64,000 nucleotides of DNA, taken from a virus. Under the pieces are notes generated by a model that worked only from the letters and a program-made list of their open reading frames with translations, was not told the origin of the DNA and did not search any database. The position numbers and the translations under genes are program-made. Positions 20,001-58,435 of the stretch are shown piece by piece. The stretch is from IMG/VR virus record IMGVR_UViG_3300009709_000003, positions 32,001 to 96,000 of that record; one strand, 5' to 3'. Positions within the stretch are counted from its first letter, which is position 1. Each line of letters starts with the position of its first letter.

Positions 20001-20232
20001 AGTCTCTGAGTACCTGGTATTGCCTGTTGAAATTAAACAGGGTCTTAATGTTCAAAAAAGACGGAGAAGAAACAAATTCAATAACATTTGGTGCAGGCTG
20101 CTGCAGAAAAGTTAACTCTTCTTCGTTTGCAACTTTAGCTTGCTCCTTGTTTTCTACCAATCCTTCAACGATTGTTGATATGGATGACATGAAGTTATTG
20201 TCATCGGTAGTTTTAGGAGGTTTACGTTTCAT
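17011..20232 (-). CDS. terL: Terminase large subunit containing an intein
   Basis: Spliced Walker A GMR/SGKT, Walker B AMIDE, ISSP, nuclease FDAG..FDAF, FDHWQS, SDD. Confidence 0.9.
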   Translation of the reverse strand: MKRKPPKTTDDNNFMSSISTIVEGLVENKEQAKVANEEELTFLQQPAPNVIEFVSSPSFLNIKTLFNFNRQYQVLRDFFGLYCPICNSMKPEATDAWGKSKETLQSEVLLVWSNTYNDDVCPKCSTTRAELVQDKLIHEYNHLHAIVGMRCVPGDTRVVTNNGLVRIKDLWKGDLHKDTFQSINECVLGEHGYELASDVYCAGTADTLKITLVKGLTVEGSHIHPVQAIKAGKFGWYKLNELTIGDKIKCTANYWPSIAKDTPINAELVKTCESRMNYESKYVIPKIWSEDLATLLGYFTSEGQCDREYGIRFTNGDEETLQHFSDTCARVFGKVPVSYTDDGITVDLNGIGIRELLNGLGLERHNAHVKRVPQSIWMLNKEYVTAYLRSYFEGDGTAAIEKSGFNKAAVAAYTVSLSLAQDLQQLLWALGVKASISKTKSRKFRSQEKFAHNSYSIRIYGENILRFSKLIGFNSARKKSALAACVDKVLSTGKYTKTDDNFEFLKIKKIEMGTTQNLFDLHVPGTHSFMAGSIVNHNSGKTVTAAQIGNYIEHRLVNIALRQPSRNLADYFGLLPEGAFEMTFIASSETQSADTIWTIYRNLRDASPWFKRYVGWIKEQEAIQEHKPGMEKWKYLETGKEIRNDYFNLKLNSKNSNSAGLAGRTRIAAMIDELCRFQQSEGASLGAEEAFRVMDNSLRTVRSAVKNHKLISWLGLNMTISSPISVDDYGMTLLERAKTTPSMYAIHKATWEWNPNEKIEYFKEAMENDPVGTMRDFGARPPLAANPLITNVDIFNEKAIDPELKPSAEIVTMPFTDKIGTPYFRAMMTSCEFRRDVPRFVVFDAGQMFDAFTGAAAHVELVQNPDGTTDFVTVFDWIMRVLPNSTTQVWFDSAEQIIEEMLKYQKIAKVEFDHWQSVGMIQHIRNLGVQADTKTIKADDFVKFVADTNMNKVRMLPKNPDDDDLEPPMKSPQAVALYEISKLERSMDGSKIYNANKGKKRGYNSDDCARVVVHVHKLVQESQVIPQGAKARSKESRLKSEMLSAQNYTSNQLGRVFHPRNTFNLGKGGTRRW
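18619..19782 (-). mobile_element. 388-aa intein with LAGLIDADG homing endonuclease in the TerL Walker A motif
   Basis: Starts at Cys151 (CVPGDT), block B GSHIHP, LLGYFTSEG and YLRSYFEGDG, ends FDLHVPGTHSF..NHN followed by Ser+1. Confidence 0.92.
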
Positions 20233-44016: not shown

Positions 44017-44032
44017 CGCAAGCCTCGTGCCA
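44017..44032 (-). promoter_or_regulatory. sigma54 promoter
   Basis: TGGCACGAGGCTTGCG upstream of 43982. Confidence 0.65.
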
Positions 44033-44070
44033 AAGATAAACCTATAAATTATCTTACATTTATATACATG

Positions 44071-45259
44071 CTAGGCATTGGTCTTTAAAGCTTCGATGCG
44101 TTCTACAATGACTAGTTTCATTGTTTTTAGTGCCCACGAAGTTGTTTTTTCTGCTTCAGCTAAAGCCCATTCCAACTCCTTGATGCGAACATCGCGCACA
44201 TATTCGGTATCGTCGCGGCGCATTTCTTTTTGCAGCACTGCTTCCGCACGTTCACAGCGGTCTTCGAGTTCAATTACGCGCCTACGCCAACTCGCTGGAA
44301 TTTCAGCGGTGTCGCGAGCGTATTCCTGCATTTCATCGCTCAACTTACTCATTGATCGTCCCCGTAAAGGGCCACTTCGGCTTGATGAATAATTTCGTTT
44401 AATTGTTTCCACAATTTTTGTTGTTCAAAATTCCATTCAGACTTAATAAGCGCTTCTTGCATGTTCCAGGCTCTGTCTATACACATTAGCAGTTCCATTC
44501 TGTTTCGTTTACTCAACTTTTGCCGACTCATCACTTTACCTCTTCACAGTCAGTGTTAATACGAGTAATACCTTTTTCGCATTTACAGCAAGCGTCTGGA
44601 ATAAGCCAGTCACTCAATTCCGCACAAATGAACTCTGCACCTACCCGGTGGTCTGGCGAGTTTTTTAGGTATTCGCTGCCACTATACCGTGCAACGCGGT
44701 AACGTTTTCCAACCACAAACTTAAGTGCTGCTTCCCGTGCTCTATAGATGTAATCGAACGGCCCGTCAGGTTGAATCGTTGGTAACCTCATGTTACTTCT
44801 CCTCTTTGCTTTCAGGTTGTGGGTCTAAATAATCTAGTGCATCATAAATAGCGTCAAGCGCTTCGTCTACTTGCGGGGTTGTGCGATATGGATAAAGTCG
44901 TTTTTCTGCGTCTATTAGCGCTTTAATGGCACGCATTTTTTGATGACGTACCAAGTGTATAGAATCTTGAACATACTCAAGGTCGATTAAATTACTCATT
45001 TTCCACCCCTGAGAATAGCCAAATCCAAAATATCCCTAGAGTAACTACGAGACTCGGAATCCGCATCGTCTACCCATCGTTCCACTATCTGACGAAGGCG
45101 TACGCATTCCGCAAGGTAATCGGCGGTTTCGGTATCTTCACCGACTGGCACCCCTGCAACATACTCCGCTCCCGGTATTTGCCATTTATGTGGCACTGGA
45201 GAAATACCGCTCGCCCACCCTAAAATCTCCTTAGCCGTGCTCAACTTTTTGTCACTCAT
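44071..45259 (-). other. Run of five small coupled hypothetical genes (44071-44412, 44349-44534, 44531-44791, 44793-44999, 44996-45259)
   Basis: Overlapping or abutting start/stop codons, phage-like small ORFs. Confidence 0.55.
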
Positions 45260-46239
45260 TTCTTTCCTACCTTCCCTTCAAGGGCGCTAATTTCATGAAT
45301 AAAATCGTCTAAGCTGTTTTCGTTTACTATACGAGGCTGAATTTTTGCCCAATTTTCAAATCGCTCTGCCAACGTTTTCTTTATAGGTACCTTGAATTGC
45401 ACGGTGGCGCGTGCGATTTCAACGCAAGCATCGGGGCGGAAGCTATCACTTAGACAAGCATTCAAGCTGATATGGTTGGGTTTCTTGTTGATAGGCTCCC
45501 ACAACACAACTTCCTTTTCAATAATATCAAATTGCTCACTTGGCTGGTCGTTATTCTGGCTTTCTGCGCCCCTATTCGCTGGAATATCGGCACTTTGAGG
45601 TGCGTCGAGGATTGCTAGTATACAATCCAGCTCATCGCCCTCATATTCTGTGCATCGAGTTTTTCCGTCCAGACATGATTCCCTTACGCGCTCCAGCTTG
45701 GCCAGGGCGGCGTCGCGTTCGGTACGTGCTTCGTTTCTTTCCCGCTGCAAAAGGGCAGCAACTTCGCGTTCGCTGTAAACAGACATCTCTGCCGCAGATT
45801 TTTCACGCCGCACCTCCTCCAATAGAGCAACGTGTATCGCAAGGCTGCGCGCCTGAGCATCGTTGTCGGCGCGGAGAGCGTCAATACACGCTTGCTGGCC
45901 GTGAGCATTAGCGTTTAGGTTCTGCCAATTTTCCAACTCACCCTTTAGCCGCTCGATTTCGTCCATCATGGCGTCGCGTTCCTCAAGCAAATCATCGACC
46001 ACTTTTGGATATCCAGCTTCGGAACAGGCTTCTCGCATACGAACCATTTGTGCGTTCAGCCGCTCATTTTCCGCTTCCAATTCGCGTGCGCGTTCCACCC
46101 ACGCTGTATTGTACGTAACACGTTCTCGTAATTCCTCGTTATCGAATTCTAATGCACGGAGAGCGTCTTGAAAACCAAGTTCTACCGGTGTATTAATCAT
46201 AAATTTAATTAAACGATCGCTCAATTTTTCACTACTCAT
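45256..46239 (-). CDS. Coiled-coil hypothetical protein (paralog of 60336-61121)
   Basis: Shared ERD.AL.KL, LAIL..P, EVVL, FKVP.K.LAER.E. Confidence 0.6.
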   Translation of the reverse strand: MSSEKLSDRLIKFMINTPVELGFQDALRALEFDNEELRERVTYNTAWVERARELEAENERLNAQMVRMREACSEAGYPKVVDDLLEERDAMMDEIERLKGELENWQNLNANAHGQQACIDALRADNDAQARSLAIHVALLEEVRREKSAAEMSVYSEREVAALLQRERNEARTERDAALAKLERVRESCLDGKTRCTEYEGDELDCILAILDAPQSADIPANRGAESQNNDQPSEQFDIIEKEVVLWEPINKKPNHISLNACLSDSFRPDACVEIARATVQFKVPIKKTLAERFENWAKIQPRIVNENSLDDFIHEISALEGKVGKK

Positions 46240-46656
46240 TACCGTTCTCCGTCTTCAATAGGGATCCAAAAAGTTTTGCTTCGTTGGCGTAATCGAATTG
46301 GCTAATAGGGTAATGATTGTCATGCTCACCACCTTTAACAGGTTCACCACACATACACGTTTCCTTAGATCTTTCTTCGGATTCGTGCTCAATTTCTTCC
46401 TCTAAAGTCATCTCGGTCTCCTACCCGCGCACTCGAATTAAAGTACGCACTGGCACCGTACCGACAGTCTTACGCGGGTTGCAATACACAACTTTGTCGC
46501 CGACTCGCAATTCGATATTTACTTCGGTATTCATTTGCTGCTCTTCAACTCCTCGCTCAATTTACTCATTTCGATCTCCTAAGGAATAAAGGTTGCCAGG
46601 CAGTATTATAGCGGCAGTTATCTCTTGAATACTTTAAATAAAGACAAAACTAGAAT

Positions 46657-46672
46657 TGCAAAATCCGTACCA
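46657..46672 (-). promoter_or_regulatory. sigma54 promoter
   Basis: TGGTACGGATTTTGCA in an intergenic gap. Confidence 0.6.
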
Positions 46673-46960
46673 GGGGACCCACGACTTTTGGGCGCAAAAA
46701 TACATCTTACACTGGTATATACTATTTAACTAATCTGAGATCGTCAGGGTCAACAAACCACAAACCGGTAATGGCGATCTCCTGCTCAGGATCGCGTACC
46801 AGATAACCATCCACATCGAAAGCAGCAATCACCCAAATCTTGTACGGATTCGGTGCGTCTACGATGATAACCCTGTCACCAACTTTAAAGTCCATAACTT
46901 ACCTCTTTATATGAAAAGAAACGTAGGGGACCCAGAAAATCTATCGCAAAAATACATCTT
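46672..46960. repeat. Bipartite direct repeat AGGGGACCCA-N10/11-CGCAAAAATACATCTT (46672-46708 and 46925-46960)
   Basis: Two copies flanking the 46722-46895 ORF. Confidence 0.75.
46722..46895 (-). CDS. 57-aa SH3/KOW-like hypothetical protein
   Basis: Not in track; MDFKVGDRVIIVDAPNPYKIWVIAAFDVDGYLVRD...; GAGGT RBS. Confidence 0.6.
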   Translation of the reverse strand: MDFKVGDRVIIVDAPNPYKIWVIAAFDVDGYLVRDPEQEIAITGLWFVDPDDLRLVK

Positions 46961-47112
46961 CGTACAATTATAATATCTGACTTCGAAATATTATGCGGTG
47001 TCGCGCGATAAGCCCGCCAACGATTGTGGTTATATTTTCGGCTTACGCTTTGAAGGTGTTTGGGAGGCCCTGGAGTGGGCCTCCCTTACTTTTCCTTGAT
47101 TGGGTCTTCGTC

Positions 47113-47316
47113 TTACCCTTGCTCTGCCGTGAAAAAGGCGCGGCGTTGGGCGTCACGGCGGTCAAGTTCCGCGTTGCATCTGCGAACGAACGACCATGCT
47201 TGAGAGACCGTGTCGGCGTCGAGGTATCCGTCTGCCTCCTTAATGCTGTCCAGTTCCGCCCACTGGTTTTCGATTGCTTGCTCAAGTTGCTCGTCTGTCA
47301 TAAAGTTAAAGTCCAT
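47113..47316 (-). CDS. Small acidic early protein
   Basis: Own promoter-RBS cassette. Confidence 0.65.
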   Translation of the reverse strand: MDFNFMTDEQLEQAIENQWAELDSIKEADGYLDADTVSQAWSFVRRCNAELDRRDAQRRAFFTAEQG

Positions 47317-47341
47317 GAGAAACTCCTGTTAAGAGGGGAAT

Positions 47342-47357
47342 TGCAAGAGACGGGCCA
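47342..47357 (-). promoter_or_regulatory. sigma54 promoter (cassette family A)
   Basis: TGGCCCGTCTCTTGCA. Confidence 0.65.
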
Positions 47358-47359
47358 AA

Positions 47360-47521
47360 TTAGAAATTCAGGCGTGGCTGGGCATTGGGGTTGATGTTCT
47401 TCTTTTGGAGACGGCCATGAACGGTCGCCTTTGACTGGACCATCTGGGTGGAAGATGTAGGCGTAGGTGGGAGGATTTCGATTTTGCCGCCGCGTGAAAG
47501 AAATTGCTCGATCGTTTCCAT
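47360..47521 (-). CDS. 53-aa SutA-like RNA-polymerase-binding peptide
   Basis: Not in track; METIEQFLSRGGKIEILPP; AGGAG RBS; own sigma54 site. Confidence 0.6.
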   Translation of the reverse strand: METIEQFLSRGGKIEILPPTPTSSTQMVQSKATVHGRLQKKNINPNAQPRLNF

Positions 47522-47556
47522 GTGTACTCCTGAAAGAAAAAGGTTAAGAGGGAAAT

Positions 47557-47572
47557 TGCAAAGGCGATGCCA
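47557..47572 (-). promoter_or_regulatory. sigma54 promoter (cassette family A)
   Basis: TGGCATCGCCTTTGCA. Confidence 0.7.
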
Positions 47573-47578
47573 ATCACT

Positions 47579-47785
47579 TCACTCGTGGCTAGGCACATCG
47601 TCCTCGACGAAGTAGTTCTGGGTGTCTTCAATGACGTCGCCGCCATACCATTCAGCACTCCAGCCGCAAAGCTCCTTAAGCTGAGCTGGGGTGAGCTGCT
47701 TCGGGTCCTGGTCAACCGGGATTTCGACGTCTGCATACTCAACGGACTCGACGATTCTCGTGATTGTGATGGTTTTTGTTTCCAT
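47579..47785 (-). CDS. Small acidic early protein
   Basis: Own promoter-RBS cassette. Confidence 0.65.
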   Translation of the reverse strand: METKTITITRIVESVEYADVEIPVDQDPKQLTPAQLKELCGWSAEWYGGDVIEDTQNYFVEDDVPSHE

Positions 47786-47810
47786 GTAAAACTCCTGTTA
47801 AGAGGGGAAT

Positions 47811-47826
47811 TGCAAAGGCGATGCCA
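47811..47826 (-). promoter_or_regulatory. sigma54 promoter (cassette family A)
   Basis: TGGCATCGCCTTTGCA, identical to 47557-47572. Confidence 0.7.
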
Positions 47827-47827
47827 A

Positions 47828-47902
47828 TCACTCGACCTGGTCAGACAGGCGAGCAATAAGGACTATCAGTACCAAAAAGAAAAAGGCGACTGGTTGTTCC
47901 AT
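47828..47902 (-). CDS. 24-aa hydrophobic peptide MEQPVAFFFLVLIVLIARLSDQVE
   Basis: GGGAG RBS; fills the slot between two cassettes. Confidence 0.45.
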   Translation of the reverse strand: MEQPVAFFFLVLIVLIARLSDQVE

Positions 47903-47932
47903 AGCTGCTCCCTAAGTTTAAAACGGTGCCAG

Positions 47933-48076
47933 TCAATAGGCCAGCTCCACCCGCAGCCATTGGGTGGTCAGGACGCGGGCCAGCGAGCGGCGGGCCAAGG
48001 TCTTGGCTTCCTCAATGGAGCGAGCCTGGATGGAAAGGACGAACTTGTTGTCTATAAAGCAAGAGTAGGTGTGCAT
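47933..48076 (-). CDS. 47-aa early protein (near-leaderless)
   Basis: MHTYSCFIDNKF...; ATG about 14 nt after the sigma54 -12 element. Confidence 0.5.
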   Translation of the reverse strand: MHTYSCFIDNKFVLSIQARSIEEAKTLARRSLARVLTTQWLRVELAY

Positions 48077-48089
48077 ATTTAAGTAAAAT

Positions 48090-48157
48090 TGCAAGGAGGG
48101 TGCCAAATGTGGTAAGTAGGATAAGGTGGGATATACGGGGTTGGCACGGTCCCTGCA
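48090..48157. promoter_or_regulatory. Divergent pair of sigma54 promoters at the strand switch
   Basis: Minus 48090-48105 TGGCACCCTCCTTGCA; plus 48142-48157 TGGCACGGTCCCTGCA. Confidence 0.75.
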
Positions 48158-48192
48158 ATGAAAATCCCGTACCCTTTTTGCAGGAGCGCAGC

Positions 48193-48381
48193 ATGACGAC
48201 GGAACTCGCAAGAACTCTTAAGTTGGTATTCCAAAACGGTCGCTTTGTGGCCAAGAACGCTTTCGGGACTATCTGCTTTTTGTCCGAGGACCGCCGTCAG
48301 GTCCAGGTCTGGATTGAGGAGCAGATTCGCATGTCGAAACTGCAGGAGCCGGTCCGCAGCCTGGCATCGCTTTTGCAATAA
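48193..48381 (+). CDS. Small early protein
   Basis: AGGAG RBS before MTTELAR. Confidence 0.55.
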   Translation: MTTELARTLKLVFQNGRFVAKNAFGTICFLSEDRRQVQVWIEEQIRMSKLQEPVRSLASLLQ

Positions 48382-48432
48382 AGAAGGTATGGGGAGTTAA
48401 GCACAGGTCGCAAGACTGGCACGATTCCTGCA
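48362..48432 (+). promoter_or_regulatory. Tandem sigma54 promoters
   Basis: 48362-48377 TGGCATCGCTTTTGCA; 48417-48432 TGGCACGATTCCTGCA. Confidence 0.7.
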
Positions 48433-48466
48433 ATTTTAAAAGTAGACACCAAACAGGAGAAGACAG

Positions 48467-48712
48467 ATGGGTAAACTCGAAGCCATCGCTCGCCTTGAAG
48501 AGATCAAAGAAGAGATGCAAGCTCTGCTTTTAGAGGCCAGTCATCTGGTGCGACAATACGCCGGGGAGCGCTCCATCTCAGACAGAGCACATGCCTACTG
48601 GGTGCCACATATCGAACAGGCGCTTGAGACAACCGGTTACGACACCGACATGACGGGTACCATCAAGGAGATGGAAGAGTCAATCGAGGAAGAGCCAGCC
48701 GAAGCTGAATAA
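48467..48712 (+). CDS. Small acidic early protein
   Basis: AGGAG RBS, 81 aa. Confidence 0.65.
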   Translation: MGKLEAIARLEEIKEEMQALLLEASHLVRQYAGERSISDRAHAYWVPHIEQALETTGYDTDMTGTIKEMEESIEEEPAEAE

Positions 48713-48767
48713 CACGGCGAAACCCCGCAGGGGGTCCTAGGGTCAGACCCTAGCTGACGAGCCGAGT
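48712..48767 (+). ncRNA. Hammerhead ribozyme, type II
   Basis: CGGC-GAAA-CCCC GCAG GGGG-UC / CUAGGG UCAGA CCCUAG-CUGACGA-GCCG; predicted cleavage after 48736. Confidence 0.9.
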
Positions 48768-48796
48768 AACAAAGTAACATACAACAAGCGGACCAA

Positions 48797-49003
48797 GTGA
48801 AGACCTACATCGTGACGGTGACGACGACAGAGATCTACGAAATTGACGCACCTAACATCCTGATGGCAGAAATGCTGAAGGACGGCATCCTGGAAGCTGA
48901 CGATATCGCGATCGAGCGAATGGTGATGGTAGACCGGTCAGTTACAATATCGACGACAGCTAAAATCGCAGATGTGGCACCAGTTTTGCAACAGAAAAAG
49001 TAA
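48797..49003 (+). CDS. Small DpnD/PcfM-like protein
   Basis: MKTYIVTVTTTEIYEIDAP...A. Confidence 0.5.
   Translation: MKTYIVTVTTTEIYEIDAPNILMAEMLKDGILEADDIAIERMVMVDRSVTISTTAKIADVAPVLQQKK
48975..48990 (+). promoter_or_regulatory. sigma54 promoter (cassette family B)
   Basis: TGGCACCAGTTTTGCA. Confidence 0.7.
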
Positions 49004-49018
49004 CCACAGGAGAACAGC

Positions 49019-49516
49019 ATGAAGACGTTCATTGTAACACGCACCACGGTTGAGACTTTTATGATTCAAAGCGAAGACGCAGAAGGCGATATCGCGCACG
49101 GCAACATCGTCCTCGACAACGAAATGCCTACACATAGTGACACTGAAATTGTGTCGCGCGAAATGCTCGACGCGCCTGAGTACCGGGTTGTCATCATCGA
49201 AGAGAACATCGGTTGGAACGAGTTTAAGGGCGATTTTGAGAACGCGGAAGACGAAGCAGAAGCTAAGGAGGCATTCTACAAACACGGCGTTTACGGGTAT
49301 TCTGTCGAGATGCGCACTGTGGTTGACGGGCAATGGGACGACGTTGACAGTTGCTTTGGTTTCTTGGGCAACGAAAGGCAGTACATGTTGGACGTGGCAA
49401 TCGAACACATCCCAAAAGGTGTGGATGCCAAGATTTGGGAAAGTTTTTGCAATGCAGCTGAAGCTACTGAGACCAATGAAACGGTCACTGGTATTGGTGC
49501 GAGTGAAGCAGCCTAA
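49019..49516 (+). CDS. Acidic early protein
   Basis: 165 aa, AGGAG RBS; MKTFIVT start. Confidence 0.65.
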   Translation: MKTFIVTRTTVETFMIQSEDAEGDIAHGNIVLDNEMPTHSDTEIVSREMLDAPEYRVVIIEENIGWNEFKGDFENAEDEAEAKEAFYKHGVYGYSVEMRTVVDGQWDDVDSCFGFLGNERQYMLDVAIEHIPKGVDAKIWESFCNAAEATETNETVTGIGASEAA

Positions 49517-49518
49517 CA

Positions 49519-49568
49519 GGACGAAACCGCTTCGGCGGTCTGCTCGTAAAACGGGCACTGACGAGTCC
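49519..49568 (+). ncRNA. Hammerhead ribozyme, type II
   Basis: GGAC-GAAA-CCGC UUCG GCGG-UC / UGCUCGU AAA ACGGGCA-CUGACGA-GUCC; predicted cleavage after 49540. Confidence 0.92.
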
Positions 49569-49580
49569 AAGGAGAACGAC

Positions 49581-49889
49581 ATGGCAACGCAAGAGGAAAT
49601 CGAGGCAGTCCGCGACAATCTGGCAGACTATGGCCTCAGTGACGAGGTGATCTCGTTGGCGATCGACATATTTGGTGTTCATGCAGCGGATGCCCTTGAT
49701 GGCGGCGCTTATCAAGGCAAATACAATTCACTCAGCCACTATGCGTCAGAATACGTGGACGAAATTGGCCTACTCCATGGTTTGGATGACGTTATCGTCA
49801 AATATTTTGACTTTGAGTCGTATGGCCGCGATTTGGTGTCAGGTGGTGATGTAGTATACGAGAATGGCCACGTTTTTATTGCCAATTAA
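49581..49889 (+). CDS. ardA: ArdA-like antirestriction protein (C-terminal domains)
   Basis: AYQGKYNS..YA.EYVDE.G......KYFDFESYGRDL...D....GHVF; AAGGAG RBS. Confidence 0.75.
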   Translation: MATQEEIEAVRDNLADYGLSDEVISLAIDIFGVHAADALDGGAYQGKYNSLSHYASEYVDEIGLLHGLDDVIVKYFDFESYGRDLVSGGDVVYENGHVFIAN

Positions 49890-49897
49890 AACAAGCT

Positions 49898-49913
49898 TGG
49901 CACCAGTTTTGCA
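49898..49913 (+). promoter_or_regulatory. sigma54 promoter (cassette family B)
   Basis: TGGCACCAGTTTTGCA, identical to 48975-48990. Confidence 0.7.
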
Positions 49914-49939
49914 AACAGAAAAGTAACACGGGGGACAAC

Positions 49940-50203
49940 GTGAAAAAGAACGCAGCGCAACAAGCCTTGACCAACGCAGTGAACCGCGCCATCGCAAATG
50001 GAGCACCAGTGTACGAGAATCAACCCGTTGAGACGCCAAAACTCAAAACCTTTATCGTAACGCAGACCATAGTAAAGACCTTTGAAGTGCAAGAAGACGA
50101 CGCAGATAAAGCCAAAAGTGCGGTATTGACGTCCCGTTTTATTACTGGGACACAGACTGTAAACACTGTCGTAACAGAGAAGCTCGAAGGTGGCGTAATA
50201 TGA
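49940..50203 (+). CDS. Small early protein
   Basis: Contains KTFIVTQT..KTFEVQ..DA module. Confidence 0.55.
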   Translation: MKKNAAQQALTNAVNRAIANGAPVYENQPVETPKLKTFIVTQTIVKTFEVQEDDADKAKSAVLTSRFITGTQTVNTVVTEKLEGGVI

Positions 50204-50381
50204 ACATCCGAATTGGAGTTTACGTTAGTCTTTATGTGGGTCTTGGCGAACAATTCATGGACCAAGTACATACAGACTGGGCAGTAGTCCAACCTGGATT
50301 CTTTAAGAAAGAACTCCAGTAAACAAACACCTTAACCCGAAAGCCCGCCTAGTGCGGGCATCGGCATTAAGAGAGGGTAAC

Positions 50382-51743
50382 ATGCGATTTAAGGTAGGGC
50401 AAGTCATTCGTAACCTTGATTCTGTCATCCCTCAATTTAAATGGCGGATTGATAGAGTTACAGAAAACGGGTACGTAGTGACGCCCCTGATTTATAAGGA
50501 CATCTACAAAGAACGTTTTCTCTCTGCTCACGACAGATTGGTTTTGGCAGAAGGGAATGGAGACAACAAGTGACAACACTTAAACGGAAATTCCCGCGCC
50601 GGGTGTACGGTAAGCGTGAACACAACTTGATGTTGCGACAACAGGCACTCATGCCACTGACATACAAGCCTTTCGAGCAAGCGATATATAATCAAGGCTG
50701 GCTAGATGCGAAGACGGCCATAGTGGAACAAGAATTGCAGGACATTTCAAACATGTTCACTGACCTGGAAAAGGACAACAAGCAATGAATCCAATTAAAA
50801 ATTACAGTGTAACCTGCAACTGCAAGTGTAACTGCCCAAAGTGTAACAAGAGAAAGTAACATGGAAGACAAACAAGTGAACCATAAAACCCGCAAATTGA
50901 GTGACGAGTTGGAGAGAACCCCAGAATGGGGAGTGTCCACCGGATTCGAAATTCGTACTATTGAAGCCATCCGCAACTTGGAATTTAACCTGCATGAGGC
51001 GCAAAAGGCCGCTGAAGATGCACACTTTTTGCTGACAGCAGAGGTTAAACGAGCAGAATCCGCTGAAGCCCGCATTAAAGAACTAGAGTCCACGTGTATT
51101 AAAGAATTTGAAAAGGGATACGACCAGGCCCTGTCTGAAGTTGGTGTCAAATGGGACGGGAACAAATTTGTAAAGAAAAATGGGGAGTCACATGAGTAAG
51201 TCAAAACTGCTTGATAGTAAACAGAAGATCATCAACTACGTGCAAAAACGACGTGATCGTATTGGTGAGGAACGAGATCTAATAACGAGGTTTGCCGAAG
51301 TACGTAAGTTGGAAGAACAAGCCAAAATAGCACGTCGAGCCTATGAACAACGGTGTGAGGCTACACGACCAGAATTCAATGCTGCTTGGGACCGTGTCAG
51401 TATGGACGCCAAGAAATATTTGAATGCCTTGGTAGCCGGCACGCCCGTAACAGTGGATACGGATGCAGATGAGATGCGGGACAGACTTGTCAAACCTACC
51501 CTTGGTGTGGTAGAATAATCCCATAAATTTCAACTTGGAGGGCACTTGGCGGACAAAGAGTCTGACACACTGCAGTACACCAGCGCAGAGGAGATTCATT
51601 CAGACCTACAAGAAATTAGAAGGAAAATCCAGGAGATCACAGCTAAGCGGCGAGCATTTTTATCCTCGTACCTAAACAAGATTTTTACATCTAACTTAGA
51701 GGAAGAGAAAAATGAAACACAATCCATTCATAGACGCCATTAA
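50382..51743 (+). other. Run of small hypothetical genes (50382-50573, 50570-50788, 50861-51199, 51192-51518, 51546-51743)
   Basis: Coupled ORFs with RBSs. Confidence 0.55.
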
Positions 51744-52104
51744 CAAGGCTTTCCCTAACATGGAGAAGATCTACGCCGAACTCGAAGAACAATTCGAACC
51801 AGGTGTGATCAGAGCGGCAGTAAAAACCTTTGGCATGGACCACGCTATCAAGGCTCTGAATCAAGGCGCATATCGAGGTAGATTTAAAAGTGTGGGCGCA
51901 TACGCAGAATCTGTGATTGCAGACCTGGCCATCCTGAACAACGACTTGTTGAAACTTTACTTTGACTACGACGCGTTCACTCGGGATCTGGGCCATGACG
52001 TCCATTTTATCGATGGGTACATTTTTGACATTGAATACGGACCTGGTATTACCTCATCAAGATCTATCATTGTGGATGACGAGGAAGACCATGAAATTCA
52101 GTGA
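51712..52104 (+). CDS. ardA: Second ArdA-like antirestriction protein
   Basis: GAYRGRFKS..AYAE.......LYFDYDAFTRDL..D....GYIF. Confidence 0.7.
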   Translation: MKHNPFIDAINKAFPNMEKIYAELEEQFEPGVIRAAVKTFGMDHAIKALNQGAYRGRFKSVGAYAESVIADLAILNNDLLKLYFDYDAFTRDLGHDVHFIDGYIFDIEYGPGITSSRSIIVDDEEDHEIQ

Positions 52105-52573
52105 CCTATTGGTAGGAGACGCCTTTGCTTGCCGGTTTGGGATTCTGAAGAAGGAAGGAGCCGGGCATGCTTTACACATTGACTCGCATGGGTTAAGTAG
52201 TTCAATCAACTCTGCTCATTCGGTCGTGTTTTTACCCTCCGTCAAAATCATCATGGAAAGCGAATACAAGGAGATTTTGAAAGAGTGTAAGAGAATCGGC
52301 TTGTCTATCAAGATTCAACAGTTGGTTGAGTCGTATTTAAAACGTCAAGGTGTGTTTGCTGAGACCGAACCGGTAAACATGCACTACCCTGCTCGATTAG
52401 CCGCCACGGTGGATATGATTGAAGCGATAGAACATCAACACGATGCATTATTGGCAGGTGAAACACACGATGATTTTACAGAAGAGGAAGTTCAAACGGC
52501 CTTGCAAGTTTTCAAAGACGCACTCGACATGCTTGAACTTACCCGCAAACAAATCCGATCAAAGATCTTTTAA
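52091..52573 (+). CDS. Hypothetical protein
   Basis: GAGG RBS before MKFSDLLVGDAF. Confidence 0.55.
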   Translation: MKFSDLLVGDAFACRFGILKKEGAGHALHIDSHGLSSSINSAHSVVFLPSVKIIMESEYKEILKECKRIGLSIKIQQLVESYLKRQGVFAETEPVNMHYPARLAATVDMIEAIEHQHDALLAGETHDDFTEEEVQTALQVFKDALDMLELTRKQIRSKIF

Positions 52574-52586
52574 AGGAATCCCATTT

Positions 52587-52814
52587 ATGTCTGATTCTCC
52601 TTACAACCCCGCTCTTCTGTCTGCACAACTTGTGGCGGTAGGGCTGTCTATTCACGCTGTAGAACAACAGTATGAGGACGTAAAGAATGGTGAGATACTT
52701 GAACACCTTAGTCACGCAGAAAGGGAAGCGGCAGGTGTTGCATTTGAACTTATTCTCACAGGGTTGAATGTAAGACGATCTCAGATATCAACTATTTTGG
52801 ATGGGTGTAGGTAG
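52587..52814 (+). CDS. Hypothetical protein resembling the C-terminus of the upstream gene
   Basis: YNPALLSAQL..V...IHAVEQQ vs HYPARLAATV..IEAIEHQ. Confidence 0.5.
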   Translation: MSDSPYNPALLSAQLVAVGLSIHAVEQQYEDVKNGEILEHLSHAEREAAGVAFELILTGLNVRRSQISTILDGCR

Positions 52815-52836
52815 GATAGTATCTTACTTATAAATT

Positions 52837-52852
52837 TGGCATAGTCATTGCA
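52837..52852 (+). promoter_or_regulatory. sigma54 promoter
   Basis: TGGCATAGTCATTGCA upstream of the helicase. Confidence 0.65.
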
Positions 52853-52883
52853 GATAAATCGTAACATCTGTCTGGAGTGGTCT

Positions 52884-53897
52884 ATGCAACTTCGAGATTA
52901 TCAAATTAAAGTCATCGACCAGGTAATCTCGAACATTAGGGGAGGGGACACGTCAGTTTTGATTGAATCTCCCACAGGCAGTGGAAAGACAATTATGGGG
53001 ATTGCTTTGGCCGCCAAACTCGGCAACGAACAACGTGTCGGATGGGTGGCTACACGCCGCAATCTGTTGGCGCAGGCCAAAGAGGCCCAAATGCAATGGG
53101 CACCTTCCATGAAATTCTTCCCTATCTCTGCCTTTGAGAAGTCCCCTCCCCTAGTTGACATTCTCATCATTGATGAAGCCCACCACACGGCGACAACGAG
53201 TATTTCAGACATCTTGATTCAATCTAAAGCCAAAATCGTCATCGGGTTGACTGCTACGCCCTTTCGTTCAGACGGTATGATGTTGGCGTTCAAGTCCCAG
53301 GTAAAGGGCTGTGGAATTCACACCCTCATCCAAGACGGTTGGTTGTCTCCTTTCGACCATTTTTCAATCAAAGATTGGTCACCAAAAGAAGTTGTGAACA
53401 CATATCTGAGAGAGCAAGACCGCTTTGGTAAATCCTGCATCTTTTTCCACACTCGGAAAGAGTGTCAGACAGCCATGAACCTGCTGCGTGCGGGTGGGGT
53501 AGAGTGCGAGTTGGTGACGGGAGAGAGCGACCGAGAGCGCCAACTTCATCAATTCGAGACCGGTAAGACCAAAGTGCTGGTCAACATGATGGTCCTCACT
53601 GAGGGTTTCGATGCCCCCGACTTGCAGTCTATTTTCATCCGGGATTCAAGTAAAGGTCCCACCATTCAGATGGGTGGGAGAGTGTTGCGGAAAGTGCCGG
53701 GAATCGCTGTAAAGAATATCGTCCAGAGTGTAAACACACGGATGCCGTTCACCCGGGTTGCAACGGCCAAGACGCAATATCTGTATGAAGACGATAGGTG
53801 GGTGAGTATCACCGCCAACCCACATGTTGAGAAAATGGTCAATGTCGCTCTCAGTCAGTTGCGACGCAACGTGTTGAAAAATATACGGGAGTATTAA
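52884..53897 (+). CDS. Superfamily 2 (DEAH) helicase
   Basis: LRDYQ, SPTGSGKT, IIDEAHH, GLTATP, LTEGFDAP, QMGGRVLR. Confidence 0.9.
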   Translation: MQLRDYQIKVIDQVISNIRGGDTSVLIESPTGSGKTIMGIALAAKLGNEQRVGWVATRRNLLAQAKEAQMQWAPSMKFFPISAFEKSPPLVDILIIDEAHHTATTSISDILIQSKAKIVIGLTATPFRSDGMMLAFKSQVKGCGIHTLIQDGWLSPFDHFSIKDWSPKEVVNTYLREQDRFGKSCIFFHTRKECQTAMNLLRAGGVECELVTGESDRERQLHQFETGKTKVLVNMMVLTEGFDAPDLQSIFIRDSSKGPTIQMGGRVLRKVPGIAVKNIVQSVNTRMPFTRVATAKTQYLYEDDRWVSITANPHVEKMVNVALSQLRRNVLKNIREY

Positions 53898-53900
53898 TCC

Positions 53901-53916
53901 TGGCACGAGAGATGCA
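53901..53916 (+). promoter_or_regulatory. sigma54 promoter (cassette family C)
   Basis: TGGCACGAGAGATGCA followed by AAAATCCCGTACCCTT, also seen after 48142. Confidence 0.65.
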
Positions 53917-53959
53917 ATAAAAATCCCGTACCCTTCGATCAACTTCCCAGGAGTTTAAC

Positions 53960-55024
53960 ATGATGAGCCAAGCAAGCCTGAACGATTTGAACGATTTCTA
54001 CACCAACGTCGTAAGTTTGCGCGATTTGTCCGTTCCTACCCCAGCAACCACCGACCGGAAAGCCGACCGCATGCCCAGCACTGTTTTCGTACATGGGCGC
54101 AAATACACAGCCGGTCGCCGTTTCTGGCAGTCCATCTTTGCGAAGTACGGTGTGGGCGACACTACCCTCCGTTATTTCACTCCTATGGAGTTGATCAGCC
54201 GCATCATCGAGCGCCGCAAGACCGACACTCTCCGTATTACTTCTATCTCTGGTCAACTGCAGGGTGTATCAGCCACGACCCGTCAGGAGACGACGCCCAC
54301 ACAAATCATCAGCTTGGGTGAACGCAGCGGGTTTCTCCCCGTTCAATATTACAATGGGGAACTTATCCTGGCGAAGTCGGTGGACCAAGCTTTCAAGATT
54401 GGCAACGACGAGTTCCAATTGAAGCACTATGCAAAAGTCCCTGTTGATGGCTACGGTAACCCTATGGTGATTATCGCACCAGAGCGTTTGGCCTGTCTCA
54501 ATCAGCTTGTGACTTGGGGCTTGGATTTCGGACAAAAGATTCAAATCGGACGTGGCATGTATCACGCCCTGGGTCAGGCCCTCCCAGCGTTTGAGAATGA
54601 AGAAGCCCTGGTGATTATGCGCAAGCGTCTTCAAGCAAGCCTTGAGACGGTAGCCAGCCTTGGTGAAGTACGAGAGACCCAACGTTTATTGGCAACCACC
54701 TACCCTAAGGCCGTGCCCGCATTCCAAGAAGCGGTTGGCGACCTGGCGCGTAAGTATGGCGTCACCAACTTGGACGCCATCGGACCGGTTCAGCAGCGCG
54801 TGCTCCCCACCGATGCCCGAGTGTATGACTTGATCAACATGCTCACCGAAGCTGCTACGCACGGCACGAGCCAGCATGTCACCACCAAGATGAACGCCCG
54901 CGTTGGCCGGTTGTTGGCCCGCCCGCAGTTTGATTTGGAGGGTATGGGTGACGAGGTGCCAGTGCAACCAAAAGCCACGTTCTTCACGCCCGAAATGTTG
55001 ACAACAAATCTGGATGCGGATTAA
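53960..55024 (+). CDS. Early protein, possibly DUF932-like
   Basis: 354 aa; DGYG...ERLACLNQLV; YDLINMLTE.ATH. Confidence 0.55.
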   Translation: MMSQASLNDLNDFYTNVVSLRDLSVPTPATTDRKADRMPSTVFVHGRKYTAGRRFWQSIFAKYGVGDTTLRYFTPMELISRIIERRKTDTLRITSISGQLQGVSATTRQETTPTQIISLGERSGFLPVQYYNGELILAKSVDQAFKIGNDEFQLKHYAKVPVDGYGNPMVIIAPERLACLNQLVTWGLDFGQKIQIGRGMYHALGQALPAFENEEALVIMRKRLQASLETVASLGEVRETQRLLATTYPKAVPAFQEAVGDLARKYGVTNLDAIGPVQQRVLPTDARVYDLINMLTEAATHGTSQHVTTKMNARVGRLLARPQFDLEGMGDEVPVQPKATFFTPEMLTTNLDAD

Positions 55025-55185
55025 TCAAATGTTGGACGAACTATTTTGCTTGGTGTTCGACGCGTTTCAAATAATTGTGAGTTGGTACATCGATGTACTT
55101 TACGTCGTGAGCCAACACCACAACCGGATGATAGACTGGTACAATTCACGCACTTACTTTTCATTTACGAAGGATGAGGAAAACC

Positions 55186-55425
55186 ATGGAAACGATTAGC
55201 GTAGAGTCATCGCATATGGCGACTATGGGTTACGAACCGGACACCAAAGTGTTGCAGATTGGATTTAAGAACAACACTCTTTATGAGTACTTTGACGTAC
55301 CGCCCAATGTCTGGGAAGAATTCAAGGCTGCCGAAAGCAAAGGTAAGTACCTGGCCAAGTTTATTAAAGGTACCTATCAATACAAGAAAGTGGAAACGCC
55401 GCCCACAGAAGAAGTAAAACCTTAG
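55186..55425 (+). CDS. KTSC-domain protein
   Basis: VESSHM..MGYEP...LQIGFKN..LYEYFDVP...A.SKGKY....IKG. Confidence 0.85.
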   Translation: METISVESSHMATMGYEPDTKVLQIGFKNNTLYEYFDVPPNVWEEFKAAESKGKYLAKFIKGTYQYKKVETPPTEEVKP

Positions 55426-55667
55426 TAGACGTCGCCGTTCTCTTCAATCTTCTTGTCTTCCAACTGTGCTACCACTCGACGATAAAACTCCAACTTAGCG
55501 CCTTCAAGTGCGCCAAGTACATCGTTCATGACTTGGTAGTTCATCTTCGTGCCCATCATATACGACCGAATGAGTTGAGTGATACAGTAGTTCAGTTCAC
55601 CCGGATCCCCAGGAAACACTTCTTGAGCATCCAGAGCGTAGCGCCGGGTCTGTTTGATATATGGCAT
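55422..55667 (-). CDS. Conserved phage protein (MPYI...GELNY...LEFYRR..ED.KI..NGDVY)
   Basis: Recognisable small phage family. Confidence 0.7.
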   Translation of the reverse strand: MPYIKQTRRYALDAQEVFPGDPGELNYCITQLIRSYMMGTKMNYQVMNDVLGALEGAKLEFYRRVVAQLEDKKIEENGDVY

Positions 55668-55668
55668 C

Positions 55669-55986
55669 TTACGACTTGGTCGAAGTGGTAGGTGTAGCGG
55701 GAGTCACACCCGTACTGACAGCAACAGGTGGAAGCTTGGCTGCCACAGCCTCGGCAAGCTTTGCTGCCTGAGCCTTAGCGGCTGCTTCTGCGGGAGTATC
55801 CAGGACGTGAATACTCTTAGCTGCGTCCCCCATTTGCACGACTTCAACTGCCGCTCCAGCCACGTCGCCATGGGCCGCGTCTGCAACTGTCACGGCTGCT
55901 CGTTCAACCGTCACCGCCGCTGCTTTCGCGTTGTGCCACGTAAAGAGCTTCCCGAACCAACTCCCGATCGCCTTTAGGAAATTCAT
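55669..55986 (-). CDS. Ala-rich hypothetical protein
   Basis: GAGG RBS before MNFLKAIGSWFGKLF. Confidence 0.55.
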   Translation of the reverse strand: MNFLKAIGSWFGKLFTWHNAKAAAVTVERAAVTVADAAHGDVAGAAVEVVQMGDAAKSIHVLDTPAEAAAKAQAAKLAEAVAAKLPPVAVSTGVTPATPTTSTKS

Positions 55987-56274
55987 GATTGTCCTCTTCG
56001 TGGAACTCAGTCCCACACTTTGTACACTTCATGTACATATAAGGAGCGATGTACCACCCGTTATGCTTGCCTGGACGATGTTGCGCTTCAAGGATATGTT
56101 GTTTACACATGTCACTGTATCGTATTAAGAGCGACCGGATAAATTATGTAGTACACGACCTTATATTACCCACATGAAGTACGTTGGATACGCTTTCGGA
56201 GTCGTAGCGGTAATCGCCTTTACTGGACAGTCTCTGTGGCGAGCATGGGTTGAACACAACGAAGAGGATAATGT

Positions 56275-56682
56275 ATGAAATTCTTTTTTAAACGTAAAGA
56301 CGGCGGCCAAGATTCCTATGTTACAGGCTATTGGCTCATTGAAGCTAAGAAGGCCTTCTCTGTTTGCCTCCTCCGATTTGATGAGAACACCAGGGAGAAT
56401 TATCACTCCCATGCGTTTAATTGTTTCTCTTGGGTGCTTACCGGTGGTCTCTCTGAACAATTTTACACAGGCACCAATAAAGCGGTGGTTAAGATCCCTC
56501 ACCTTCCCTCTTTCAAGCCGTTTATCACTCGTAAGACTACCCTCCACCGAGTGAAGTCTCTGCCAGGCAAGGGTACATCGTGGGTCCTCTCATTCCGTGG
56601 CCCATGGGAAGATACTTGGCACGAAGTAGATAAGCACAACAACGTGATCAATCTCACCCATGGGCGAAAGGTCGTAACTTGA
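56275..56682 (+). CDS. Cupin-like protein
   Basis: HSHAF..FSWVL.GG..E...HRV...WVLSFRGP. Confidence 0.65.
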   Translation: MKFFFKRKDGGQDSYVTGYWLIEAKKAFSVCLLRFDENTRENYHSHAFNCFSWVLTGGLSEQFYTGTNKAVVKIPHLPSFKPFITRKTTLHRVKSLPGKGTSWVLSFRGPWEDTWHEVDKHNNVINLTHGRKVVT

Positions 56683-56885
56683 AATACCTACTTCTTCTAC
56701 TGCTCCCAGCGTGTGCTAGTGCTAGTCCTGTTCCTTTCCGTAAGGCCCAGTGGCAAGCCGGACAACAATGCGTTGTGTACCAACGTGCTAAGTGCCGAGG
56801 TAAGGCTGGCACGGTTTACACCTGTTATCTGTGTCGTACCGGGGACACTGAGGGTGAACCGTCAGATTACAACGTTCCCCGATAA
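56679..56885 (+). CDS. Small Cys-rich lipoprotein
   Basis: MKYLLLLLLPA-C. Confidence 0.5.
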   Translation: MKYLLLLLLPACASASPVPFRKAQWQAGQQCVVYQRAKCRGKAGTVYTCYLCRTGDTEGEPSDYNVPR

Positions 56886-57117
56886 ATCGGTAGAGCATGC
56901 GTCTTATACACACATACAAGCGAGAGAACGAAATGTAGAGAGACGCCGCCAAGCTGTAGCACCGATGATACCCGGTGAAGTGTAGCCTCGCACAGGAGCA
57001 TTGGACAACGCCGCGCTCCCGGCCTACAGCCAAATCGATACGGATGTCAAACTTTTTGGCAGGGGTTCGTCGCGTACATCCGGATTGAAATAGGATAGAA
57101 TAATTTCATTGTCAGAC

Positions 57118-57234
57118 AAAACCGATCGGTTTTGATCGCTCCCTTCTTCGTTTGATTTTCTACCCAATACCTCAGCACTTCGCTTAAGAATTTATACACC
57201 ACATATAATTGTATAAAACAAAACCGATCGGTTT
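57118..57234. repeat. Two copies of palindrome AAACCGATCGGTTT in a ~1-kb non-coding region
   Basis: 57118-57133 (16 bp) and 57221-57234 (14 bp). Confidence 0.8.
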
Positions 57235-58013
57235 AGTTCGTGCGCTTTACCTACATCAAACTACATTTGCGGTGCGTGTCAGATTGAACGTTCATACACT
57301 TTTAATTTCCCGCAGCCCCGTTTTTAAACGTAGCATTCGACGCGAATACTAGAGCCGCAACTAACCCACCGACGCAAAAGGAAAGTACACTCCCGGCCCT
57401 CCCAGATATGGTGGTACCCGAACTTACAGACAAAGACGCGGAAGCTTACATTCCTGTGTACGTTTTATCAGTAGAGTGTACGTAGCAACAAGTGGTCTGT
57501 GGGGTTAGATTTAGTCTAGGTAAGGTGTAAATCTGTTACGGGTTGAAATAGTCTACTTTCCCTTCTCCATACGGTCTTCATTTGTTCTTTTAAAAGAGGA
57601 GCGTATTTTCTGCGGCACGGACAAACGTCACGGCCCGTACAGGAGAATCAAGGTGAGTACGAGGGCCAATGTGTAATAACCTCTCCTACTGTTTATAGGA
57701 GGACCATAAGTACTAGAGGTAAGATCATTAAAACAGAGTAACATAACAACCATTGATGCGATTTTCATTTTATTTCTGCTAAGGATGGATGATGTTTTAT
57801 ACTTAATTCTTATAGAACATAAATAGTATATAAATGAATACGGTATGTAAAATATAAACAAACATGGGAAAGTGTACACACAGGGACTTTTACTCTGACA
57901 AACACACCAAAAAATCCCGGGTTGTGGGGTTACCGATGTATTAAATGTCGGAAATGGCGTCCACTATTTTTGTGGGGCGGCGAAGGTTGGCAAGTGGACG
58001 AGAAGGGAGAAGA

Positions 58014-58418
58014 ATGATGCAGGCGAACCATTTGATTTTTGCGGTAGGTAGTGTGGTAGTAGGGATTCTTGGAGTCGCATACATCCGATATTCGAAACCA
58101 TTTACGGAGACTAAAATTTCTGAGGTGGTGGGACGTCCTCGTTTAAATTGGGTGGTTGGTAGCTATGTGGCCGGTGATAAACTGTGGACTGCCGATGCGT
58201 CTTTCCATAAAAGAATCGGTCTAACCAGTCAGCAGAGCCATGATTTGATGGAGGGGCGGGCCATTGTGGTCGATGACATTTTATTTGATAAGCTTATCAG
58301 GGAACAAACTCCTTTCATCTCTTCCTATAAAGAACAAAAAGGCGTATGTTTAATGTTTCCAGTTATATGGCGTAAGTCAGATCATGAAAAGTTATATAAG
58401 GAATACTACTTAAAGTAA
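58014..58418 (+). CDS. Membrane-anchored hypothetical protein
   Basis: N-terminal transmembrane segment. Confidence 0.5.
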   Translation: MMQANHLIFAVGSVVVGILGVAYIRYSKPFTETKISEVVGRPRLNWVVGSYVAGDKLWTADASFHKRIGLTSQQSHDLMEGRAIVVDDILFDKLIREQTPFISSYKEQKGVCLMFPVIWRKSDHEKLYKEYYLK

Positions 58419-58419
58419 T

Positions 58420-58435
58420 TGGCACGGCGGTTGCA
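58420..58435 (+). promoter_or_regulatory. sigma54 promoter
   Basis: TGGCACGGCGGTTGCA, perfect consensus, intergenic. Confidence 0.75.

Follow-up and report, generated by a model that had tools for sequence, protein, structure and literature searches.

Two compact type II hammerhead ribozymes lie between small genes of an uncultivated phage, and the second of them (hammerhead 2, positions 49519 to 49568) leads directly into the ribosome binding site of a gene for a short ArdA-like anti-restriction protein. As judged from sequence analysis, both elements are probably genuine self-cleaving hammerheads, which cut an early mRNA and thereby separate the two cistrons of a unit consisting of promoter, gene A, ribozyme and gene B. 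The window studied here is a stretch of 64,000 nucleotides, bases 32001 to 96000 of the IMG/VR record IMGVR_UViG_3300009709_000003, and all phage positions refer to this window. The phage genome comprises 160,708 bp, carries direct terminal repeats, is estimated to be complete and has a G+C content of 43%. No close relatives of the phage were found by a DNA search of cultured phages, by single-protein scans of viral contigs with three of its proteins or by a word-based protein search; the phage helicases compared were all below 30% identity, so that no close relative is found there either.

Arrangement of the two ribozyme-containing units

The order promoter-like motif, gene, hammerhead, gene is present twice in the window (Table 1). 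The initial annotation had described alternating promoters and hammerheads at the gene junctions between 48.4 and 50 kb, and this alternation was recovered, with plus-strand motifs beginning at 48417, 48975 and 49898; the second of these overlaps the 3' end of the preceding gene. Its placement of the second ribozyme between a stop codon and the ribosome binding site of the ArdA-like gene is likewise correct: the TAA stop codon (49514-49516) is followed by CA and then by the ribozyme, and AAGGAG lies directly 3' of the stem II 3' strand, 6 nt ahead of the ATG at 49581. Hammerhead 1 is preceded by the same TAA-CA sequence. The flanking bases are A48714 and A48765 in hammerhead 1 and A49518 and A49569 in hammerhead 2. 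No terminator-like site was found between the genes and ribozymes of the two units. The last codons upstream of both ribozymes are also alike (GAAGC-NNNN-TAACA at 48700-48714 and 49504-49518), and this likeness suggests a duplication that comprised both the ribozyme and the 3' end of the gene before it.

Table 1. Elements of the two ribozyme-containing units and related promoter-like motifs in the window.
Feature	Position	Strand	Basis
Sigma54-type (-24/-12) promoter-like motif TGGCAC-N5-CTGCA, head of unit 1	48417..48432	+	pattern search
Gene A of unit 1, 81 aa	48467..48712	+	ORF list; no Pfam or PHROG hit
Hammerhead 1, type II, 50 nt	48715..48764	+	descriptor scan, MFE fold, leave-out model R2
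Gene B of unit 1, 68 aa, GTG start, weak RBS	48797..49003	+	ORF list, BLASTP
Sigma54-type promoter-like motif TGGCAC-N5-TTGCA, head of unit 2	48975..48990	+	pattern search
Gene A of unit 2, 165 aa, acidic, no known family	49019..49516	+	Pfam, PHROG
Hammerhead 2, type II, 50 nt	49519..49568	+	descriptor, fold, R2 model
Shine-Dalgarno sequence AAGGAG	49569..49574	+	read from sequence
Short ArdA-like gene, 102 aa	49581..49889	+	Pfam PF07275, PHROG 2059
Sigma54-type promoter-like motif, head of next unit (gene 49940-50203)	49898..49913	+	pattern search
Example positions of sigma54-type motifs	47557 (-), 47811 (-), 48090 (-), 48142 (+), 48362 (+), 48417 (+), 48975 (+), 49898 (+), 52837 (+), 58420 (+)	both	pattern search

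The motif TGGCAY-N5-YTGCR occurs 11 times in the window compared with 0.37 expected occurrences, a count of pattern matches only. The motifs show the sigma54 promoter pattern (GG at -24, GC at -12, fixed spacing), are distributed over both strands within 44017-58435, and are all located at gene boundaries and point into genes. Besides this pattern, a sigma54-dependent promoter requires sigma54 and an AAA+ activator; genes encoding the domains Sigma54_activat (PF00158) or Sigma54_DBD (PF04552) were not detected in the 160-kb phage. Around two of the minus-strand motifs (47557-47572 and 47811-47826), which are 254 nt apart, approximately 33 nt are near-identical, with one mismatch in the stretch displayed; plus- and minus-strand ORFs overlap in the region 47557-47826, and gene calls are uncertain there. 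Elsewhere in the window, the minus strand encodes a 1073-aa protein (17011-20232), which combines a LAGLIDADG homing-endonuclease domain with an intein splicing domain and is thus the product of an intein-bearing gene.

Three of the small genes in and next to the two units (48797-49003, 49019-49516 and 49940-50203) share a KT(F/Y)IVTxTTxE(T)F segment (BLASTP E 0.001 and 8e-07). In the first of them, the segment is N-terminal and is common with gene 49019-49516 (E 0.001). It looks like a small paralogous domain that is repeated across the ribozyme-punctuated units.

Structure of the hammerheads and covariation between the copies

Both ribozymes have the same 50-nt architecture: stem II comprises 4 bp, stem III has 5 bp and is capped by a tetraloop, and stem I extends over 7 bp and ends in a loop of 3 nt. 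[quoted passage not shown] In hammerhead 2, the 5' strand of stem II (GGAC) is followed by GAAA and by stem III (CCGC-UUCG-GCGG), which carries a c(UUCG)g loop and is closed by the A15.1-U16.1 pair, with C17 at position 49540; the 3' half contains stem I, the CUGACGA segment and the 3' strand of stem II, GUCC. The complete hammerhead core (C3 U4 G5 A6 N7 G8 A9, G12 A13 A14, A15.1-U16.1, H17 not G) is present in both copies, and CUGACGA, GAAA and GUC with C17 are found in the correct order and register. Cleavage is predicted after C48736 in hammerhead 1 and after C49540 in hammerhead 2.

The minimum free energy (MFE) fold calculated with ViennaRNA is exactly the hammerhead three-way junction, both for the 50-mer and for its 96-nt context. 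The two copies are identical at only 29 of 50 positions; in eight of the 16 base pairs both partners have been exchanged, and pairing is preserved throughout. The initial annotation, which had called the second hammerhead distinct in sequence with compensatory changes in its stems, was therefore right on this point. The three helices are thus supported by the MFE fold as well as by covariation between the copies and across the class described below. Sequestration of the ribosome binding site by an extended stem II was considered and rejected as too weak, as the context fold pairs only three bases flanking the start codon and has an ensemble frequency of 0.05.

Most, but not all, published type II hammerheads contain a pseudoknot between loop I and the 3' tail (PMC3088659). 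By inspection, no such pseudoknot was found in the two copies, in which the loop I sequences UAAAA and UCAGA lack a complement in the tails AAGGAGAAC and AGUAACAAA, respectively, and the cleavage rate at physiological Mg2+ is therefore uncertain.

Chance expectation and Rfam scores

A descriptor covering hammerhead types I, II and III detected only these two credible hammerheads in the 160,708-bp genome, and no further credible one was found genome-wide either by descriptor or by the class model. Matches to the type I and III descriptors at loose thresholds were long and weak, occurred at the level of shuffled sequences and were discarded. The strict type II descriptor produced one match in 300 Markov-shuffled genomes, compared with the two sites observed, which lie within 800 nt of each other, are both intergenic and are located on the coding strand. 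With two sites genome-wide against one strict match per 300 shuffles, a chance resemblance to the hammerhead consensus is practically excluded; its sole argument is a sub-threshold Rfam score, and it is further contradicted by the 61 to 64 bits that the two copies reach under a class model from which they had been left out.

At the gathering score, Rfam reports no hammerhead in the window. With a permissive threshold, hammerhead 2 is recognised as RF02276 (Hammerhead_II) with 23.1 bits compared with a gathering score of 37 (E 0.19 in 4 kb), and hammerhead 1 is not matched even at E<=10. The misfit sits in the periphery, namely in the shorter loops and the missing pseudoknot between loop I and the 3' tail. 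None of the 20 loci of the compact class that were searched (21 sites, with both copies of L019 and L054 included) reaches the gathering score. The low score is therefore a property of the Rfam model, not of the ribozyme definition, and the compact class is left unannotated by the standard Rfam route. Taking fold, covariation and chance expectation into account, the element at 49519-49568 is almost certainly a genuine ribozyme.

A compact class of type II hammerheads in viral contigs

Viral contigs were scanned with the core-and-spacing pattern CGAAAC-N10-GTC-N17-CTGACGAG. As this pattern was derived from the core and spacing of the window's own copies, independent evidence is limited to stems, loops and flanks. 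At least 119 viral contigs contain the pattern, with 132 sites among the matches listed, and stems II, III and I are paired in all 132 listed sites although the pattern had left the stems free. An alignment of 111 sequences, which comprises 109 distinct sites and the two window copies, contains standard pairs in 98.5% of its cells, compared with 69% in shuffled partners and 30-45% in slid controls, and 518 cells are altered on both sides. Furthermore, several bases outside the search pattern are conserved: U29 is kept in 108 of 109 sites, G28, A31 and C34 of loop I are also conserved across the class, and an A at position -1, immediately 5' of stem II, is found in 105 of 107 and usually faces a purine. 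Both window copies carry G28, U29, A31, C34 and the A at -1. A covariance model (R2), which was built from other contigs only and to which the window sequences did not contribute, recognises hammerhead 2 with 63.8 bits (E 1.5e-22) and hammerhead 1 with 61.2 bits; beyond these two copies, nothing in the window reaches E 0.01 with this model.

The conservation of bases that the pattern had left free bears on the question whether the two elements still cleave. They could be inactive relics or purely structural hairpins between cistrons, which protect a 3' end or uncouple translation, and this would be in line with the absence of a recognisable pseudoknot, the low Rfam score and the fact that stems I and III would form stable hairpins on their own. 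However, neither copy has lost a single catalytic nucleotide, although half of the stem pairs differ between them, and in a relic the unpaired core would be the first part to decay; in addition, the pattern-free positions G28, U29, A31, C34 and A at -1 are conserved across more than 100 contigs. Loss of activity is hence very unlikely. In this argument, the invariance of the catalytic core within the class alignment does not count as independent evidence, because the core was fixed by the search pattern.

The position of the ribozymes relative to genes is also a property of the class. In 115 of the 132 listed sites, the ribozyme 5' edge lies a few nucleotides at most from the end of an upstream ORF, defined as an open frame of at least 44 codons between two stop codons (median about 95), and a start codon follows in 121 of the 132, typically 20-30 nt (about 24) past the 3' edge. 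The idea of the initial annotation that ribozymes act as punctuation fits this arrangement as far as position is concerned; the release or stabilisation of mRNAs that it attached to the term would be a further consequence of cleavage and is discussed below. Of 108 further genes that lie downstream of class members, most cannot be assigned to a known family, and the few that can be named include ArdA and a T7 gp5.9-type RecBCD inhibitor. Of 100 loci searched with the class model, approximately one third have two or more copies, and some phages have five to seven copies in a few kb. The loci L074:229-5385 and L069:7314-9687 contain seven compact type II hammerheads each, so that nearly every small gene there is separated from the next by a ribozyme. 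In about ten of 107 class members (for instance L004, L010, L027 and L044), stem II is directly followed by a GUCAGA tail. This tail is complementary to the core segment CUGAC and could allow an alternative, inactive pairing; it is absent from both window copies. Altogether, the compact architecture is abundant in viral metagenomes, is missed at the Rfam gathering score and nearly always abuts the end of an ORF.

The ArdA-like gene and its association with hammerheads

The ORF downstream of hammerhead 2 matches the Pfam family PF07275 (E 3.5e-12, 47.6 bits with a cut-off of 27), with the match covering positions 91-154 of the 155-position profile only, and PHROG 2059 (anti-restriction). ArdA proper is a DNA mimic with three domains, of which the match covers the C-terminal part. 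Since many homologues of approximately 100 aa exist, the 102-aa ArdA-like protein represents a recurrent short form. A split ArdA, in which the 165-aa protein encoded upstream would provide the missing N-terminal part, was considered and rejected: hhalign assigned this protein a probability of 0.2 against the ArdA alignment, and its BLASTP comparison with the nearest full-length homologue yielded an E value of 3.4. A 250-aa ORF (49137-49889), which spans the ribozyme and shares the frame of the ArdA-like gene, was also dismissed as a gene. Its N-terminal part is basic and of low complexity and results from reading the acidic upstream gene in another frame, and its ArdA match begins after the ribozyme.

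The initial annotation had referred to the mRNAs behind the ribozymes as anti-defence mRNAs. This label fits in part: of the two downstream genes, one can be assigned to a family, as a short ArdA-like gene, and the other cannot.

The closest ArdA homologue, with 49% identity, is encoded in L123/L124 and has hammerheads on both sides. In L123:1529-2949, and in the same way in L124, a SAM-lyase gene is followed by a type II hammerhead, a full-length ardA, a second type II hammerhead and the next gene; here, two different anti-restriction genes are parted by ribozymes. A type II hammerhead is located 20-27 nt upstream of the ardA start codon in L123, L114, L007, L179 and L209. In L114 and L007, the hammerhead directly ahead of an ArdA-like gene was found among the matches to the ribozyme pattern. 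When viral ardA loci were retrieved by protein alone, three of 80 contained a type II hammerhead, which was always adjacent to ardA, upstream in L179 and L209 and downstream in L199. The association of hammerheads with ardA is real and is confined to a minority of ardA genes.

These data also bear on the reason why the ribozymes exist. Instead of tuning one operon, a ribozyme could serve as the insulator of a portable cassette: it would travel as a mobile module with the downstream ribosome binding site and gene, so that a newly acquired small gene is expressed alike wherever it lands. The chemistry would be the same as in the preferred explanation and only the purpose would differ. In line with this idea, the same compact ribozyme is found ahead of many small genes that are unrelated to each other, modules of hammerhead and ardA recur in otherwise unrelated contigs, the ribozymes of a phage without close relatives nevertheless fit the class model with more than 60 bits, and the identities of hammerhead-flanked genes are not constant in published examples (PMC3088659). 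However, the two window copies share the last upstream codons and TAA-CA, which looks like a local duplication that included the end of the upstream gene, and only two of 80 viral ardA loci have a hammerhead upstream, so that the module is not tightly linked. A portable insulator is therefore regarded as unlikely.

Proposed mechanism

The role of the two ribozymes is most likely the cutting of polycistronic early mRNA between cistrons. They would be transcribed as parts of plus-strand mRNAs of the early region, which we infer to start at the sigma54-type promoter-like motifs. In the transcript, hammerhead 2 would fold with stems I and III as hairpins and stem II formed by GGAC and GUCC, and would cut after C49540. 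The upstream cistron, which encodes the 165-aa protein, would retain 24 nt beyond its stop codon, with the c(UUCG)g hairpin and a 2',3'-cyclic phosphate at their 3' end, and the ArdA-like mRNA would begin with a 5'-OH and the stem I hairpin, in a 28-nt leader that runs into AAGGAG. As only the 4-bp stem II joins the two cleavage products, they should separate at once. The downstream 5' end would thereby become independent of the sequence upstream, and stability and translation may differ for each cistron. 5'-end-dependent RNases enter poorly at a 5'-OH, and hairpins at the 5' or 3' end protect RNA from degradation. With such ends, the two cistrons would have separate and probably different lifetimes and translation.

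RtcB-type ligases join 5'-OH and 2',3'-cyclic phosphate ends, the end chemistry that follows from the hammerhead mechanism. It is conceivable in principle that the 804-nt RNA released by the two cuts (48737-49540, with two small genes) is itself the functional product, in a circularised or ligated form: two ribozymes of the same orientation bracket a defined segment, its predicted ends could be joined by RtcB, and spliced or circular products were raised as a possibility for other hammerhead pairs by Perreault et al. (PMC3088659). The same authors sought such products and found none (PMC3088659), the segment is split by the internal promoter-like motif at 48975, and most class loci contain a single ribozyme, all of which renders such a product extremely unlikely.

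A more specific version of the proposed cleavage between cistrons would treat the compact class as a distinct subclass, in which a contact between loop I (U29, A31) and the A(-1)/purine(+1) pair replaces the pseudoknot and folding is gated by the terminating ribosome. Such gating would arise because the footprint of a ribosome on the upstream cistron covers the stem II 5' strand, GAAA and part of stem III. We consider this version improbable. If it were true, cleavage would report translation of the upstream gene, and nearly every early gene of some phages would be separated from its neighbour by a ribozyme.

Significance

The locus is a clean example of two isostructural ribozymes, each placed between a stop codon and the next ribosome binding site in two-gene units headed by a promoter-like motif, and one of the two leads into the gene for a short ArdA-like protein. 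The biological role of phage hammerheads was described as still unresolved in a review from 2019, and the purpose of the thousands of bacterial and phage hammerheads is still open (PMC6765202). The description of the compact class will be useful for the annotation of phage early regions and for the choice of tractable systems in which ribozymes between cistrons can be tested. New in this work is the compact subclass, which abuts stop codons and is missed at the Rfam threshold; general knowledge of hammerheads is unchanged.

Comparison with known hammerhead systems

In RiboJ-type insulators, a self-cleaving hammerhead just upstream of the ribosome binding site creates a fixed, hairpin-capped leader with a 5'-OH, whatever lies upstream. 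RiboJ itself was engineered from a type III hammerhead of a plant satellite RNA, to which a hairpin was added. Hammerhead 2 resembles it in its location just upstream of a ribosome binding site and differs from it in being natural, of type II and intercistronic.

The first natural type II hammerheads were described by Perreault et al. in 2011, who used search descriptors that included pairs of hammerheads within 2 kb (PMC3088659). Clusters of hammerheads in prophages flank single genes, and a function in the processing of long phage transcripts was proposed (PMC3088659). Three clustered arrangements were shown to cleave in vitro, and the one from Agrobacterium tumefaciens also did so in Escherichia coli (PMC3088659). 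In A. tumefaciens, ardA has hammerheads on both sides, and in three Legionella strains it is the gene immediately after a hammerhead (PMC3088659). Thus, both the link between hammerheads and ardA and the idea of transcript processing were already published in 2011 and are not new; in the literature searched, no other paper that links hammerheads with ArdA was found. Compared by described arrangement, the triple hammerhead of the A. tumefaciens C58 prophage and the Legionella cases resemble hammerhead 2 in that a gene of the ardA family comes directly after a hammerhead, with additional hammerheads close by in A. tumefaciens C58. The elements described here differ from them in their occurrence in an uncultivated 160-kb phage, in the 102-aa short form of ArdA and in the sigma54-type motif that heads each unit.

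Three type II hammerheads of Desulfovibrio vulgaris, which are also located next to phage-like genes, cleave in vivo as detected by cyPhyRNA-seq (PMC8782182). Their fragments measure 29-32 nt on the 5' side and 39 nt on the 3' side, compared with predicted minimal fragments of 22 and 28 nt for the window copies. With RF02276 and the type II hammerheads of Perreault et al., the window copies share an identical catalytic core, the intergenic context in phages and prophages and the tendency to cluster within 2 kb around single genes (PMC3088659). In contrast to the published type II consensus, they are compact in the periphery and lack its pseudoknot, and the compact class conserves instead U29, A31 and the A(-1)/purine(+1) pair at the mouth of stem II.
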